Shown in pieces: positions 41,654 to 47,241 of a stretch of 64,000 nucleotides of DNA; the stretch's first letter is position 1, and each line of letters begins with the position of its first letter. Under the pieces are notes generated by a model. It saw only the letters and a program-made list of their open reading frames with translations. It did not search any database and had not been told where the DNA came from. Position numbers and translations under genes: made by a program. Origin of the DNA: Deltaproteobacteria bacterium (GTDB lineage: Bacteria > Myxococcota > Kuafuiibacteriia > Kuafuiibacteriales > Kuafuiibacteriaceae). Where the stretch lies: assembly GCA_040218735.1 (NCBI GenBank), contig JAVJQW010000070.1, positions 192,001 through 256,000 on the forward strand, read 5' to 3'.

Positions 41654-42223
41654 ATGCGCACCCTCTTCCCGAGCGCCCTGACGCTGATCCTCACGTTCGC
41701 CGCGACGCCCGCGCACGCCGACGAGGACGTGTACTTCACGACGAAGAGCGTCCTGAAGTCGTTCTTCAAGACCTCGAAGAAGGTCACCTACGTGAAGATC
41801 GACGCGAAGGCGAACCGCGACGAGCTCCGTCGCACGCTCGGGTACGTCCCGAACAAGAAGACGTACGCGGTGTTCGTCGCGAAGACCGGTGAGCACATCG
41901 ACGGCTATGCACTGGTCGACGAGGAGATGGGCCAGCACCTCCCGATCACGTTCGCGGTGAAGTTTTCGCCGAACGGCACCGTCGAGCGCACCGAGGTCAT
42001 GGTCTACCGCGAAGGGTACGGCGACGAGATCCGCGAAGAACGTTTCCGTCGCCAGTTCGTCGGCAAGGCCACCCGCGATCGCTTCTCGCTCGGCGACGAC
42101 ATCATCGCGATCTCCGGCGCCACCATCTCCGCCAAGTCCATGGCCATCGGCGTGAAACGCGCCGTCGCGCTCGTGGCGCTGGCACGTCGCGAGCTCGGGA
42201 CCGTCGCCAGCACGACGCCCTGA
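41654..42223 (+). CDS. Exported FMN-binding (flavinylation-site) protein
   Basis: Signal peptide; PITFAV, VMVYREGYG.EI....FRRQFVGK, AISGATISA (SGAT flavinylation motif). Confidence 0.85.
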   Translation: MRTLFPSALTLILTFAATPAHADEDVYFTTKSVLKSFFKTSKKVTYVKIDAKANRDELRRTLGYVPNKKTYAVFVAKTGEHIDGYALVDEEMGQHLPITFAVKFSPNGTVERTEVMVYREGYGDEIREERFRRQFVGKATRDRFSLGDDIIAISGATISAKSMAIGVKRAVALVALARRELGTVASTTP

Positions 42224-42783
42224 TGCGTGCGTTCGCGAAGCCGACCCCGATCGGTCGGCTCTCGGTCGAAGCGCGCGTCGTCTACACCGCGTTCTGCGTG
42301 TTCATGCTGCTCGGTTACTTCACGAGCGCGTGGCTCTACCTCGACGACGACCTCGGCGTGCGCCCCGCCGACACCGAGCGCTACTACCTCGGTGAGGAGA
42401 CGACGGATGCCTCGACGAGCGACGACGGTCCGGCGCTCGACCTCCCCGAAGAGGACGCCCTCCCCGACCAGGCGCTCCGCCTCGAAAAGCCCGCGCGCCA
42501 GGTGATGGAGACGTTCCACTTCCACCTGTTCTCGATGCCGGTGTGCCTGCTGATCATCGCGCACATCTTCATGATGTGCGGCGTGTCCACGCGCCACAAA
42601 GTGGTGTGGATCGGCGCGGCCACGGTGACCACGTTCGTGCACCTCGTGACGCCCGTGTTGGTGCGCTTCGTCTCCCCCGGCTTCGCGTTCCTCATGTTCC
42701 CGAGCGCGGTGTTGATGGGGGTTTCGTGGCTGTACCTAACCGGCCGCCCAGTGCTCGAGATGTGGTCCCCGAAGGCGTCCTGA
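42223..42783 (+). CDS. Membrane protein (~4 TM) with His residues in or near the TMs
   Basis: TGATG overlap with the FMN-binding gene; ETFHFHLFSMP, IAHIF, FVHL. Confidence 0.7.
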   Translation: MRAFAKPTPIGRLSVEARVVYTAFCVFMLLGYFTSAWLYLDDDLGVRPADTERYYLGEETTDASTSDDGPALDLPEEDALPDQALRLEKPARQVMETFHFHLFSMPVCLLIIAHIFMMCGVSTRHKVVWIGAATVTTFVHLVTPVLVRFVSPGFAFLMFPSAVLMGVSWLYLTGRPVLEMWSPKAS

Positions 42784-43041
42784 GCGTTCGATCGCCGTCC
42801 ACCCGAGCGCCGCCGCGACGGCGGTGATTCGTTCGTCCGCGTCGTCCGCCCAGACGTCGATCGTCGCCACGCCGAGCTCGGGCCAGGTGTGCACGACGAT
42901 CGTCGACGCCGCCGCGAAGTACGTCGCCGAGAGGCCGTGCGGCGCCCAGCGCCACGTCACCCCTTCACCGAAGCGCGCGCGCAGCGCATCGAGGGTCGGC
43001 TCGTGGGCGCCGATCGCCCAGGTCCCGAACGCGTGATTCAC
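42736..43041 (-). CDS. Degenerate AdoMetDC (SpeD/SpeH) paralog lacking the ESH Glu/His and the catalytic Cys
   Basis: WAPHGLS......ASTIVVHTWPELGVATIDVW matches FxPxGVS......ESHxxIHTWPExGYAxxDxFTC; GTGA overlap with the upstream paralog. Confidence 0.7.
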   Translation of the reverse strand: MNHAFGTWAIGAHEPTLDALRARFGEGVTWRWAPHGLSATYFAAASTIVVHTWPELGVATIDVWADDADERITAVAAALGWTAIERSGRLRGPHLEHWAAG

Positions 43042-43367
43042 GACGCCCCTCGCTCCACGCGCTGCACCGCGCACCGTTCGAACCTGAACACCTCACGCAG
43101 TGTTCGCACCGCGAGGTCTTCGTCGAACGCTCGGCACGAGAAGACGTCGGCGTGCACGGCGCGGCCTCGCGTGTGGATGCTGATGTGGCTCTCGGAGATC
43201 AGGACGATGCCCACCACGCCGTCCGCCTGGGCGCGGATCTGCGGGGGTGCGACGGCGGTCAGCGCGAGGCGCTCCACCAAACACACGAGCGCCCGCTCGA
43301 CGCCGGCTTCGTCCAACGCGGCGGTGCAGTCGTCCGCGTCGATCAACAGGTGTACGCCGAGCGACAC
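43038..43367 (-). CDS. speD: Pyruvoyl-dependent S-adenosylmethionine decarboxylase family proenzyme
   Basis: LGVHLLID..DC, GVVGIVLISESHISIHT, DVFSCRAFD, ERG. Confidence 0.8.
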   Translation of the reverse strand: MSLGVHLLIDADDCTAALDEAGVERALVCLVERLALTAVAPPQIRAQADGVVGIVLISESHISIHTRGRAVHADVFSCRAFDEDLAVRTLREVFRFERCAVQRVERGAS

Positions 43368-43398: not shown

Positions 43399-45510
43399 TC
43401 ATTCGGCGACCTTCACGTACGCGTCGTAGAGCGACTGGATGTGTGAGACGTACGCGACCGGCTCGCGCCCGCGGCAGAACCCGTGGCGCGCGCGGTCCGC
43501 GTACTTCTTCTCGGAGAGCATCAGGAGCGCCTTCTCGACGTTGCCGAACCACACGTCCTTGTCGAGGCCCTCGCGCGCTGCGAGCCGCCGCGCGTCGTAC
43601 ACGTGCCCGAGCCCGACGTTGTACGAAGCGAGCGCAAACCGCATCCGCTCCGCGAAGGGGATCGACGGATCGAAGCGCGAGAGCATCCGCCCCATGTACT
43701 TGATCCCCGCGTGGGTCCCGATCGCCGGGTTCTCGAGGTTCTTGAACCCCATCGACGCCCCCGTCTTCGGCATCACCTGGAACAGTCCCTTCGCGCCGAC
43801 CCAGCTCTTCGCTTTCGGGTCGAAGCGGCTCTCGACGTAGGCCTGCGCCGCCATGAGCCGCCAGTCGAACCCGTACTTCGCCGCGAACTTCTTGATGAGC
43901 GCGTCGAACGGAGAGATCTGCCCGGTCTTCGTCACGCGGTTGTCCTGGTACTTCGCGATCGAGTGCTCGTTCACGAAGTACCGCTTCTTCAGCACGTTGT
44001 AGGTGAGGCCGCGGTAGTTCTTCTTCACGAACGCCGAGAGGAACGCTTCTAGCTTCTTCGCGTCGGGCCGCACCGCGTACGCGATCTCGCGCTCGTCGGA
44101 CAGGTCGAACGCGGCCTCGACCTCCACGCCGTAGGTCTGCTCGATCTTCAGTAGGTGCTCATCGGCGATCGTGTACTCGATCTCCCCCGCCGCGATCTGC
44201 CCGAGCAACACGGGTGTCTCGACGTCGCCCGGGACGTCGACGACCTTCGGGTTCACGCCCGACGCCTTCAGCTCCTCCAGCGTCGCGCGATAACTCGACG
44301 ACGGCCGCACGTGGATCGTCACGCCGTCGAGCGCCTCCTTCGACGCCGGCCCCTCGGCGCCCTTCTTCTTCACGAGCACCTCCTTGGTGAACAGGTACGG
44401 CGTGCTGAACGCGACCTTCGCCTTGCGTTTGTCCGTCACCGTCATCTGCGCCGCGATCACGTCGCCCTTGCCTTCGAGCAGCCACGGGATGAGGTCGGAG
44501 CGGCTCGGCGGGACGACGGTCTCCAGGCGCACGTCGAGCTCCTTCGCGATGAGCTTCGCCATCTCGTAGTCGAAGCCGCGCTCGTCGCCCTTGTAGAGGA
44601 AGTAACTCGCTGCGTTGTTCCGGGTGAGGACACGCAACACGCCGCGCTCCTTGATGCCGTCGAGGTCCCCGGTGAAGTCGGGGTCGCGCTTCTCGGACAT
44701 CGCACGCTCGATGTGGAAGCGGTCGAGCGCCTCCTTCAGCTTCGGGTTGCTCTTGCGCACCGCCCACGCGATCTCCCGCTTCTCGTCGAGCGCGAACGCA
44801 CGCGCGATATCCGGGTTGTACTGTTCGAACGCCGCCAGCAAGTGGCTGTCGACGACCGTGAGGAGCTTGTCCTTCGACGTCGTCACCTTGTCGACGATCG
44901 CGTCGGTGTCGAGGTGCTCGTCGGCGTAGTCGATCTTCAGCGTGTGCTCCTTCGCGAGCGCTTCCAGTGAAGACGCGTACGACGAGCTCTTCCGAACGAG
45001 GAACGTCCAGCCCTCGGCGTCCTCGATCTTCTCCGGGACGCCCTCCGCCCCCTTCTTTGCGACGACGATCTCCTCGACTCCGAGCGTCGAGCGCGCGAAC
45101 GCGACCTGGTCCTCGCGCGCGTCGGTCACCGTGAGCTGCGCCGCGATCAGATCCCCGCGTCCTTCGATCAGCGCGGGGATGAGCGCCTCGTAGCGATCGA
45201 CCAGGACGAACACCGGCTCCACCCCCAGCGAGTCCGCGAACGTCTCGGCGTTCTCGATGTCCTCGAGCCACGGCATCCCGGCGCGCGGGAGGAACTGCGC
45301 TCCGGACCGACGGACGAGGACGCGCAACGTCCCACGCGCCTCGATCGCTTCGAGGTCGCCGACGTCCTGGTCCGCGTCCGCCGCCGCCTGCGTGGCCTTC
45401 ACGGGGCGCGACTTCTTGGCCTTCTTCGCCCCCGTCGTCGTCTCCCCCTCCTTGGACTTACACGCGCCGGCGGCGAGGAGGACGGACAGTGCGACGATTC
45501 GGGCATACAT
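43399..45510 (-). CDS. mltF: MltF-like lipoprotein: two family-3 substrate-binding domains plus lytic transglycosylase
   Basis: Lipobox AAGAC; duplicated GDL..I..RG.LRVL...LIP.L.EG.GD.IAA domains; DWRLMAAQAYVESRF, GLFQVMP, ASYNVG. Confidence 0.82.
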   Translation of the reverse strand: MYARIVALSVLLAAGACKSKEGETTTGAKKAKKSRPVKATQAAADADQDVGDLEAIEARGTLRVLVRRSGAQFLPRAGMPWLEDIENAETFADSLGVEPVFVLVDRYEALIPALIEGRGDLIAAQLTVTDAREDQVAFARSTLGVEEIVVAKKGAEGVPEKIEDAEGWTFLVRKSSSYASSLEALAKEHTLKIDYADEHLDTDAIVDKVTTSKDKLLTVVDSHLLAAFEQYNPDIARAFALDEKREIAWAVRKSNPKLKEALDRFHIERAMSEKRDPDFTGDLDGIKERGVLRVLTRNNAASYFLYKGDERGFDYEMAKLIAKELDVRLETVVPPSRSDLIPWLLEGKGDVIAAQMTVTDKRKAKVAFSTPYLFTKEVLVKKKGAEGPASKEALDGVTIHVRPSSSYRATLEELKASGVNPKVVDVPGDVETPVLLGQIAAGEIEYTIADEHLLKIEQTYGVEVEAAFDLSDEREIAYAVRPDAKKLEAFLSAFVKKNYRGLTYNVLKKRYFVNEHSIAKYQDNRVTKTGQISPFDALIKKFAAKYGFDWRLMAAQAYVESRFDPKAKSWVGAKGLFQVMPKTGASMGFKNLENPAIGTHAGIKYMGRMLSRFDPSIPFAERMRFALASYNVGLGHVYDARRLAAREGLDKDVWFGNVEKALLMLSEKKYADRARHGFCRGREPVAYVSHIQSLYDAYVKVAE

Positions 45511-45588
45511 CGAAGACCACCCTAACATCGCGTCGCGCTCGGGCCCGTTTGACACGGGTCCGGCCCCGCGACATGACTAGTCGGACCG

Positions 45589-47241
45589 ATGGGCGATGAA
45601 GTCGGACGTCGGGGACGCATCGAAGTCGTGAGCGGGCCCCTCGCGGGCCTGACGCGCGAGTTCGACGACGCGCTGTCGATCGGCCGGCGCGTCGAAAACG
45701 ACCTCGCGCTCGTCGACGATCAGGTCTCGCGTCGCCACGCACAGATTCAGCGCGACGGCGACGCATTCACCGTCGAGGACGTCGGCAGTCGCCTCGGTAC
45801 ACGCGTCGACGGCCGGCCGATTCGCGGCCCTACGCTCCTCACCGAGGGCACGACCGTCACCGTCGGCGCGACGCTGCTCCGCTTCACGAGTCATCCGCGT
45901 GAGCCCGACACGATGCCGGAGACGAAGGCGTTCCGTTCGCCGGTCGTCGCCGCCAAGACGCTCACCGCGCTCCCGCGAATGCAGGGCTCGCAGCCTCAAA
46001 CCCTCGACCTCAAGGTCGTCGGCATCGAGCGTTCGGTCGAATCGGACGATCTCGACGCCAAGAACGAAAAAGAGCTGCGCAGCGCCGGCAAACATCTTCA
46101 GACGCTGCTGCTCGCCAACCGCATCATCTCCACGGAGGTCGACACCGACGCCCTCCTCGAACGCATCCTCGATGCACTCTTCGAGACCTTCTCCGTGCAC
46201 CGCGCGGTCATCTGCACGCTCGGCGCCGACAACACCCTCGACGTCCGCGCCACACGCACGAAACGGCGCGGCGGCGAGCAGCCGCAGATCAGCAGCACCA
46301 TCGCGTACCGCGCGCTCGAAGAGCGCGTCGGCGTCCTCACGCACGACGCGAGCTCCGACCAGCGCTTCGACGCGAAGAAGAGCATCGTCGACCAGAACAT
46401 CCGCTCCGCGATCGCCGCGCCGATGATCCACCGCGACCGGACACTCGGCGTCATCTACCTCGACACCGTCGGCATCGCGCGCATCTTCAGCGAGCAGGAT
46501 CTCGAGCTGCTCAACGGCATCGCGTCGGCCGCGGCGGGTGCGCTCGACCGCGCCTCACTCGTCGCGCGCCTGAAGAACACCGCGGCGGAGACGATCCGCC
46601 GCCTCGCCGTCGCGGCGGAGTACCGCGACGACGACACCGGCTTCCACATCCACCGCATGAGCGAGTACGCGGCCCAGATCGCGCGCGCGCTCGCGTACGA
46701 CGAAGCGTTCTGCGAGAACGTCCAGCTCGCTAGCCCGATGCACGACGTCGGCAAGATCGGGATCCCCGATCACATCCTGAAGAAACCTGGCCGGCTCACG
46801 TCGGAGGAGTTCGAGATCATGAAGTCGCACACCACCAAGGGGGGTGCGATCCTCGTGGGCTCGGAGTCGGAGCTCCTCCAGATGGCCTACCGTGTCGCAA
46901 TGGGACACCACGAGAAGTTCGACGGTTCAGGATACCCCGTGGGTCTCGTCGGGGAGGCGATCCCCATCGAGGGGCGCATCGTCGCGGTCGCCGACGTATT
47001 CGACGCCCTCGCCTCCAAGCGCTGCTACAAACCCGCGTTCGAGCTCGACGCGTGCTTCGAGATGATCGTGGAGGGACGGGGAGCGCACTTCGATCCGGCC
47101 GTCGTCGACGCCTTCATGGACACCAAGGCGGACATCCTCGAGATCCGCGAACACTACCTCGAGCTGGAACGCCAGGCCGAACAGATGGACGAAGCCCCCA
47201 GCTTCGAGAACCTCTGGAAGCGCTCCGGCGCGCTGTCGTAG
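45589..47241 (+). CDS. FHA-GAF-HD-GYP cyclic dinucleotide phosphodiesterase
   Basis: IGR...VSRRHA (FHA); SAIAAPM...GVIYLD...FSEQDL (GAF); HDVGKIG, HHEKFDGSGYP, ADVFDAL. Confidence 0.9.
   Translation: MGDEVGRRGRIEVVSGPLAGLTREFDDALSIGRRVENDLALVDDQVSRRHAQIQRDGDAFTVEDVGSRLGTRVDGRPIRGPTLLTEGTTVTVGATLLRFTSHPREPDTMPETKAFRSPVVAAKTLTALPRMQGSQPQTLDLKVVGIERSVESDDLDAKNEKELRSAGKHLQTLLLANRIISTEVDTDALLERILDALFETFSVHRAVICTLGADNTLDVRATRTKRRGGEQPQISSTIAYRALEERVGVLTHDASSDQRFDAKKSIVDQNIRSAIAAPMIHRDRTLGVIYLDTVGIARIFSEQDLELLNGIASAAAGALDRASLVARLKNTAAETIRRLAVAAEYRDDDTGFHIHRMSEYAAQIARALAYDEAFCENVQLASPMHDVGKIGIPDHILKKPGRLTSEEFEIMKSHTTKGGAILVGSESELLQMAYRVAMGHHEKFDGSGYPVGLVGEAIPIEGRIVAVADVFDALASKRCYKPAFELDACFEMIVEGRGAHFDPAVVDAFMDTKADILEIREHYLELERQAEQMDEAPSFENLWKRSGALS

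Follow-up and report, generated by a model that had tools for sequence, protein, structure and literature searches.

A pair of small overlapping genes, here called A and B, was found in a 64,000-nucleotide (nt) window from a Deltaproteobacteria bacterium of the family Kuafuiibacteriaceae (Myxococcota; GenBank assembly GCA_040218735.1, contig JAVJQW010000070.1, positions 192,001 to 256,000 of the forward strand). Both encode paralogs of the S-adenosylmethionine (AdoMet) decarboxylase (AdoMetDC) SpeD. Each gene keeps the opposite half of the catalytic site, and A and B therefore probably function only as a pair; sequence comparisons and a modeled complex make it probable that their products form an AdoMetDC that is an obligate heterodimer and has a single, composite active site. 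The split pair is real and ancient: every genome in which we found a B-type gene also has an A-type gene, and none of them has a canonical SpeD. The features of the pair are as follows, with positions given in the window.

43038-43367, minus strand: gene A, 109 amino acids (aa), GTG start; class-1b SpeD paralog and predicted pyruvoyl-bearing subunit.
43185-43199, minus strand: I-S-E-S-H, codons 57-61 of A; cleavage site, with Ser60 as the predicted pyruvoyl precursor.
43173-43175, minus strand: His65 of A, equivalent to T. maritima His68.
43134-43148, minus strand: D-V-F-S-C, codons 74-78 of A; Cys78 is the T. maritima Cys83 equivalent by alignment.
43046-43051, minus strand: GAGGGG, Shine-Dalgarno-like by its sequence, within the 3' end of A and 5 nt 5' of the GTG of B.
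43038-43041, minus strand: GTGA, the start GTG of B overlapping the stop TGA of A; candidate translational coupling.
42736-43041, minus strand: gene B, 101 aa; SpeD paralog without cleavage site or Cys, predicted to be the substrate-binding, His-donating subunit.
42928-42948, minus strand: W-A-P-H-G-L-S, codons 32-38 of B; equivalents of T. maritima Phe49, Pro51, Gly53, and Ser55.
42877-42891, minus strand: H-T-W-P-E, codons 51-55 of B; equivalents of T. maritima His68 and Glu72.

Division of catalytic residues between A and B

The original prediction described two overlapping small genes of the AdoMetDC family with a GTGA junction, and this was borne out by the open reading frames (ORFs) and by matches of both products to Pfam AdoMet_dc (PF02675; gathering score, 25 bits), with 64 bits (E value, 1.8e-17) for A and 41.1 bits (E value, 2.5e-10) for B, the match of B spanning profile positions 28-82 only. 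These are the only PF02675 matches in the whole genome (11.6 Mb, 70 contigs). The start of B is annotated at the identical position in the relatives P0001-P0003, and B-type proteins currently carry the annotation "S-adenosylmethionine decarboxylase."

Residues were mapped by HMMER alignment to the enzymes of T. maritima (1tlu/1vr7) and A. aeolicus (2iii), together with a 16-row MAFFT alignment. A retains Glu59-Ser60-His61, His65, and Cys78, equivalent to T. maritima Glu62-Ser63-His64, His68, and Cys83; its Q-A-D-G-V-V-G replaces F-x-P-x-G-x-S and its H-T-R-G-R replaces H-T-W-P-E, and equivalents of Pro51, Ser55, and Trp-Pro-Glu72 are missing. B retains Trp32, Pro34, Gly36, Ser38, His51, Trp53, Pro54, and Glu55 but reads A-S-T at the position of E-S-H and has Asp at the Cys83 column. 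The self-cleavage Ser in E-S-H, His68, and Cys83 thus occur together in the chain of A and not in that of B, while neither chain combines the pocket residues (F-x-P-x-G-x-S and W-P-E) with the pyruvoyl Ser; the complete set is present only in A and B jointly. All motifs originally attributed to the two proteins were found in these alignments, with the refinement that B of the window keeps a Ser at the Ser63 column, which among 13 B-types is seen in this lineage only (1/13).

Ser63, His68, and Cys83 of T. maritima are essential for processing and catalysis, according to Li et al. 2023 (PMC10407285); B retains the ribose-binding Glu and also the Pro described there as diagnostic of bona fide AdoMetDC. 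According to Kozbial and Mushegian 2005 (PMC1282579), the N-half of the eukaryotic enzyme contains the pyruvoyl Ser and the adjacent Cys, and its C-half contains the ribose-binding Glu and the His of strand 12; the prokaryotic conservation pattern is called "the union" of both halves. The same source has an aromatic residue and the H-T-W-P-E Glu contacting adenine and ribose, and it agrees with the human residue map on which the original prediction relied. When the residue comparison is combined with this map, the residues of the N-half are therefore found in A and those of the C-half in B.

Conservation and co-occurrence of A- and B-types

Searches of the window's family, order, and class all cover the same 20 genomes. 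A lone canonical SpeD (128-144 bits) occurs in nine of these, A and B together in five, and no match or a weak match only in six. The five genomes with two low-scoring matches (G000, G003, G012, G009, and G011) each contain one A-type and one B-type gene, which are adjacent in G000, G003, and G012; in G009 and G011 they are on separate contigs or at a distance of 4.4 Mb from each other.

In a phylum sample of 401 genomes, a B-type profile matched 98 places in 93 genomes. Because the score of this profile fails to separate B-type from canonical sequences, 90 places (30 loci and 60 fetched regions) were sorted by motif columns, which gave 10 B-types, 77 canonical enzymes, and 3 variants with one or two substitutions; the eight places left out were seven class members scoring as canonical and one contig-end fragment. 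The 10 B-type genomes have a single B-profile match each and therefore no canonical SpeD, and in 8 of them an A-type gene lies directly upstream on the same strand. When the same genomes were searched with an A-type profile, the 10 best matches (102-163 bits) were exactly the 10 B-type genomes, so that co-occurrence in this sample is 10/10 in both directions. The next matches reached at most 77 bits, and the 20 inspected were complete enzymes, 16 of them an H-T-F-P-E variant with a one-residue loop insertion. Lone A-types that seemed to be present in Myxococcaceae-like genomes were rejected on this ground, since they are complete H-T-F-P-E enzymes in which the loop insertion shifts the Phe49 column.

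A scan of one genome per species with an 18-row B-type alignment returned 80 loci, of which 69 were canonical SpeD, mostly from Aquificaceae; the other 11 comprised 5 B-types and 6 that were one- or two-substitution variants or a contig-end fragment. Three of the five B-type loci (L070, L071, L113, L141, and L142) are in further genomes (G401, G402, and G403), and L113 and L141 have motif strings and contig coordinates identical to those of G003 and G258. The A-type gene is upstream of B in G401 and G402 and on another contig in G403. Each of G401-G405 has exactly two PF02675 matches, one A-type and one B-type, and G404 and G405 appear identical to genomes G258 and G003.

The search for conserved pairs in other genomes was thus positive. 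In total there are 13 B-type genomes, all with an A-type gene (13/13), which is directly upstream in 10 and unlinked in 3 (G009, G011, and G403), and canonical SpeD is present in 0/13. The 10 adjacent pairs include 6 with an NTGA overlap, 1 with a 1-nt spacer, and 3 that overlap by 32-38 nt. At the active-site columns (T. maritima numbering) the 13 pairs have the following residues.

Aromatic at the Phe49 column: A-types, 0/13; B-types, 13/13.
Ser/Thr55: A-types, 0/13; B-types, 13/13.
E-S-H triad: A-types, 11/13 (Gln and Ala for Glu in the other two); B-types, 0/13.
Ser63 and His64: A-types, 13/13; B-types, pair not retained.
His68: A-types, 13/13; B-types, 13/13.
Trp70: A-types, 0/13; B-types, 13/13.
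Pro71: B-types, 13/13.
Glu72: A-types, 1/13; B-types, 13/13.
Asp80: A-types, 13/13; B-types, 13/13.
Cys83: A-types, 13/13; B-types, 1/13.

In an alignment of eight A-types, D74, F76, S77, and C78 of A were invariant, as were the cleavage Ser and His (8/8).

Two groups of single SpeD homologs with unusual motifs were also seen. Many genomes of family f9 have a single variant with H-T-F-P-E for H-T-W-P-E (16 loci: L259-L264, L266-L271, and L274-L277, from G400, G361, G330, G308, G174, and other f9 genomes), with a one-residue insertion in the F-x-P-x-G-x-S loop and Asn or Ser at the Asp80 column; these genomes were missed by the B-type profile at an E value of 1e-12, and 97/172 f9 genomes were found by the A-type profile. 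The Planctomyces-labeled loci L125, L129, L132-L135, L139, L140, and L143 each encode one SpeD homolog in which Pro occupies the Phe49 column and Asn the Asp80 column and the motif set is otherwise complete.

B-type family, natural fusions, and selection

A profile of seven B-types was searched against 1.84 billion protein representatives and gave 3321 matches at an E value of ≤0.001. The best 150 of these comprise 64 standalone B-types, 74 canonical enzymes, 5 others, 4 fusions of an A-type N-domain with a B-type C-domain (P0024, P0138, P0048, and P0054), one fusion of an A-type N-domain with a near-B-type C-domain (P0041), and 2 two-domain proteins with a canonical and a degenerate domain. 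Across 44 B-types, which are 23-40% identical to B of the window apart from one close relative at 81%, positions P34, G36, H51, W53, P54, E55, and D62 are invariant and S38 is nearly so; the C-terminal tail of B is not conserved in its closest relatives. Protein atlas clusters for the pair are labeled as generic AdoMet_dc only.

A quick IQ-TREE analysis (125 rows, 113 columns) was made after representatives shorter than 85 residues and loci shorter than 55 had been dropped and 25 of the 74 canonical representatives had been drawn randomly; the tree is unrooted and is built from few columns. One starred clade (Shimodaira-Hasegawa-like approximate likelihood ratio test, 97) of 55 rows unites 53 B-types, P0022, and the C-half of the fusion P0054. 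Seventeen A-types group with the N-halves of P0048 and P0054 and two degenerate domains (support, 93; not starred). The halves of P0024 (support, 99) and those of P0138 pair with each other among canonical sequences, which suggests a second, independent origin of complementary loss, so that such loss appears from these sequences to have arisen at least twice, once in the A and B clades and once in the P0024 and P0138 fusions. In P0024 (273 aa) and P0138 (271 aa), the N-domain is without the aromatic residue and Glu72, and the C-domain is without the cleavage Glu and/or Ser and without the Cys.

The window stretch is present in public sponge, aquaculture, and biofloc metagenomes. Contigs of four public runs were aligned to the stretch and the listed differences translated; among the variants listed, B has 12 synonymous and 6 nonsynonymous distinct changes and A has 4 synonymous and 0 nonsynonymous, and the pair is under purifying selection. 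A 151-nt metatranscriptome contig (run X19) covers 42985-43135 with one difference and spans the A/B junction, which is only a hint of transcription because DNA can occur in RNA libraries; the RNA runs X19 and X21 contain small shares of the stretch only.

Predicted structures and complex

The AlphaFold monomer of A has a predicted local distance difference test (pLDDT) value of 94.5 and aligns by VIA-align to T. maritima 1vr7_B with a Z score of 16.4 (root mean square deviation [rmsd], 2.1 over 108 residues), and that of B has a pLDDT of 83.6 and aligns to 1tlu_A with a Z score of 7.6 (rmsd, 3.3 over 91 residues). Prediction of the A:B complex from our own alignments gave an interface score (ipSAE) of 0.89 in each of three runs, and the best of three controls gave 0.00; in the benchmark for this score, the mark was attained by 116/157 solved complexes and 2/215 mismatched pairs. 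Contact agreement among the A:B runs was at least 87% and partner pLDDT at least 85. On the side of A, the predicted interface includes residues 59-61, 63, and 65, and on the side of B it includes residues 32, 36, 38, 51, and 53; A His61-B His51 (A61-B51) and A56-B38 are among the explicit contacts. The heterodimer model therefore passes, and it sets the cleavage site of A, Glu59-Ser60-His61, opposite His51 and Ser38 of B.

Proposed composite active site

The original proposal that A and B divide the catalytic roles and build one composite site is supported by the complementary pattern in 13/13 genomes, by co-occurrence even where the genes are unlinked, by the gene overlaps, and by the complex model. 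Under this proposal, A and B would descend from a homodimeric class-1b SpeD in which, at each site, the cleaved Ser and the Cys came from one protomer and Ser55, His68, Glu72, and the aromatic residues from the other. In T. maritima, by homology to the eukaryotic halves, the partner protomer would supply His68, Ser55, and Glu72. Each paralog would then have lost one residue set, leaving a single working site in which Ser60 and Cys78 of A are joined by Trp32, Ser38, His51, and Glu55 of B, and the symmetric second site would be dead. Cleavage of the Glu59-Ser60 bond of A, for which B would be needed, would convert Ser60 to the pyruvoyl group. Because the two genes appear to be translationally coupled, matched amounts of the two proteins would result. 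The presumed product, decarboxylated AdoMet, would supply the spermidine-synthase-like aminopropyltransferases of the genome.

Several observations weigh against this interpretation. Both proteins miss the NCBIfam equivalog TIGR03330, with 56.5 bits for A and 31.6 bits for B versus a cutoff of 75.65 bits. The monomer model of B is without terminal strands and has weak matches in Foldseek (best E value, 0.015), and the complex prediction may have passed through likeness to homodimers, because class-1b homodimers have already been solved. The residue pattern has exceptions, namely Glu72 in the A-type of G212 and Cys83 in the B-type of G377; in addition, an aromatic residue precedes the Phe49 column by 6-9 positions, ahead of a loop insertion, in several A-types. 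His65 (His68 column) is kept by A in 13/13 genomes and is unneeded by the composite site; it faces the dead pseudo-site in the model and may be structural or may permit A:A self-processing. That His68, Ser55, and Glu72 come from the partner protomer is deduced from homology to the eukaryotic halves (PMC1282579). No polyamine gene is adjacent to the pair within the window, where the neighbors are SBP_bac_3/SLT and FMN_bind proteins, and the neighbors of the pair differ across Myxococcota.

Alternative explanations

A could instead be a self-sufficient homodimeric pyruvoyl decarboxylase, perhaps neofunctionalized for a substrate such as Arg or Orn that has no use for an adenosine pocket. B would then add no residue to catalysis and serve as a pseudoenzyme accessory to A, as a chaperone or a regulator of the prozyme kind. 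We consider this unlikely. A does keep Ser60, His65, and Cys78, which correspond to the essential trio of Li et al. 2023 (PMC10407285); that study also reports that SpeD homologs have repeatedly turned into Arg or Orn decarboxylases, and a dead-paralog activator has a precedent in trypanosomes (PMC3253432). However, Ser55 is absent from A in 13/13 genomes, no A-type without a B-type was found among the 401 genomes searched, and A is without the sequence pattern of ornithine decarboxylase (ODC) type that published SpeDC domains display (Fig. S5 of PMC10407285). The invariant residues P34, G36, H51, W53, P54, and E55 of B are exactly those for substrate binding and processing, which would be unexpected in a mere scaffold.

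Alternatively, the composite-site heterodimer could be real and act on a substrate other than AdoMet, so that another amine is made, which we judge somewhat less probable still. In the window and at most Myxococcota loci the pair has no adjacent speE, as this explanation would have it, but pair-bearing genomes have Spermine_synth genes without any other SpeD, and in G401 and G403 the genes stand in same-strand clusters with Spermine_synth. B also keeps the adenine- and ribose-binding aromatic residue and the Glu of H-T-W-P-E (PMC1282579, in the part consulted), and AdoMet is thus the probable substrate of the A:B heterodimer. Finally, B could be a gene copy in decay or an ORF that arose by chance in GC-rich sequence, as its missing cleavage motif and Cys, its partial Pfam match, and its 48-nt 3' overlap with a convergent ORF (42223-42783, plus strand) might suggest. 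This is very improbable and already contradicted: its seven invariant residues across orthologs with 26-38% identity, the single B-type clade, the 12 synonymous against 6 nonsynonymous changes among the listed variants, the start/stop coupling to A in several genomes, and the metatranscriptome contig across the junction all speak against it.

Genomic context

The genome of the window has four Spermine_synth matches, one of which is a 519-aa protein with an N-terminal extension. After this best spermidine-synthase-like gene (L029:2-1336, minus strand; contig C42 of G000), the strand carries a gene resembling flavin amine oxidoreductases (NAD_binding_8 and Amino_oxidase). Spermine_synth genes are present in all of G401-G405. 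In G401, one strand carries A, B, DUF350, DUF4178, and Spermine_synth (573-aa ORF) in sequence, and in G403 the B gene lies in a like same-strand cluster with a Spermine_synth gene. The order of these clusters links DUF350 and DUF4178 to polyamine metabolism. The clusters span 2516-7062 of L238 (G401) and 2668-6972 of L239 (G403), and their Spermine_synth protein has an N-terminal extension of about 330 aa.

Upstream of the pair in the window, a gene at 43399-45555 (minus strand) ends 31 nt before A and encodes a 718-aa MltF-like protein that combines an SLT lytic transglycosylase domain with two domains of the SBP_bac_3 type; it may be cotranscribed with A and B. Downstream are an FMN_bind protein and the 186-aa convergent ORF mentioned above, which has no Pfam match and whose 3' end overlaps that of B at 42736-42783. 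Farther upstream, a 550-aa ORF at 45589-47241 (plus strand) has, by eye, an FHA-like start and an HD-GYP-like motif. A protein with FHA and GAF domains (L150:2-967, minus strand) adjoins the A/B pair in G012, and these FHA-type neighbors suggest some local synteny between the window and G012. The pairs of G003 and G012 have flanking FUR-family genes.

Comparison with known AdoMetDC systems

The A/B pair resembles the homodimeric class-1b SpeD of T. maritima (1tlu/1vr7) and A. aeolicus (2iii) in Pfam family, in fold, and in the self-cleaving Ser, His, and Cys of A. In the class-1b enzymes, by contrast, one gene encodes complete protomers that form two active sites per dimer, whereas here two genes have half the residues each, and there would therefore be at most one site per A:B dimer.

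With the eukaryotic class-2 AdoMetDC (human and potato), the pair shares the residue partition and one predicted site per pseudo-dimer (PMC1282579); the gene order A-B parallels the order of N-half and C-half, and natural A-type/B-type fusions exist. In contrast to the single class-2 polypeptide, the pair consists of two ORFs separated by a stop codon. PDB sequences searched with the A-type and B-type profiles at an E value of ≤10 returned class-1b entries only and no class-2 chains. By VIA-align to human and potato chains, A reaches Z scores of 9.8-10.1 and B of 5.5-6.3, both best on the C-terminal half (human alpha 171-317), the N-half being split over two chains in these entries, so that this alignment does not assign A and B to halves. 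Relative to the eukaryotic enzyme, the pair shows a likeness in how the residues are divided and how the modules are ordered.

The AdoMetDC-prozyme pair of trypanosomatids (5tvm) similarly combines an enzyme with a nonprocessing paralog, and its activity depends on the heterodimer (PMC3253432). That pair is of class 2, and its catalytic subunit is complete with an allosteric dead paralog (same source), whereas B would donate active-site residues. Since A is without Ser55, Trp70, and Glu72, the A/B pair has no complete catalytic subunit and differs in this from an enzyme with its prozyme. The "prozyme-like" label of the original prediction therefore fits loosely: the nonprocessing paralog is there, but the trypanosome active subunit is complete and neither A nor B is.

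The bacterial SpeD-SpeDC fusions are also two SpeD-family modules acting together (Li et al. 2023, PMC10407285); in the V. vadensis fusion the C-terminal module does not self-cleave, and the authors discuss the fusions as models of how the eukaryotic enzyme arose. Unlike A, the N-domain of those fusions is fully canonical (F-x-P-x-G-x-S, E-S-H, W-P-E, and Cys; Fig. S5 of PMC10407285, as far as accessible), and unlike B, which retains H-T-W-P-E, their C-domain is ODC-type or degraded and without H-T-W-P-E, with no complementary loss described in the accessible part of that paper. The words "heterodimer" and "tandem" do not occur in the accessible text of Li et al. 2023 (PMC10407285), and we found no published description of a heteromeric bacterial SpeD in the full-text literature, the coverage of which excludes most subscription journals. 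The top VIA-align match of B is the N-terminal domain of human spermine synthase (3c6k; Z score, 7.7; rmsd, 5.1 over 90 residues), which likewise has a noncatalytic AdoMetDC-like fold; in contrast to the standalone A and B proteins, it is fused to an aminopropyltransferase.

Implications for AdoMetDC evolution and annotation

A more far-reaching idea, which we offer as speculative and rather doubtful, is that the A/B pair and the natural fusions represent a prokaryotic route from a two-site homodimer to the eukaryotic one-site pseudo-dimer, with B needed in trans for formation of the pyruvoyl group of A. The steps of such a route would be duplication, complementary half-site loss, and fusion across the overlapping stop and start. 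If B is indeed needed in trans, formation of the pyruvoyl cofactor would hinge on a second gene product.

The A/B pair, which is conserved and diversified, would be a clean natural case of a homodimeric enzyme resolved into an obligate heterodimer through complementary half-site loss. By its resemblance in residue partition, it would also be a present-day parallel, in unfused form, to the architecture of eukaryotic AdoMetDC, with natural fused forms alongside. The published origin model, in which a canonical SpeD is joined to a degraded ODC-type domain, fails to reproduce the eukaryotic partition of residues, whereas the A/B pair reproduces it. The hypothesis lends itself to direct tests on two small proteins. 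For annotation, B-types are labeled as AdoMetDC yet would be unable to form the cofactor, and genomes with the pair are therefore likely to be misscored in reconstructions of polyamine pathways.

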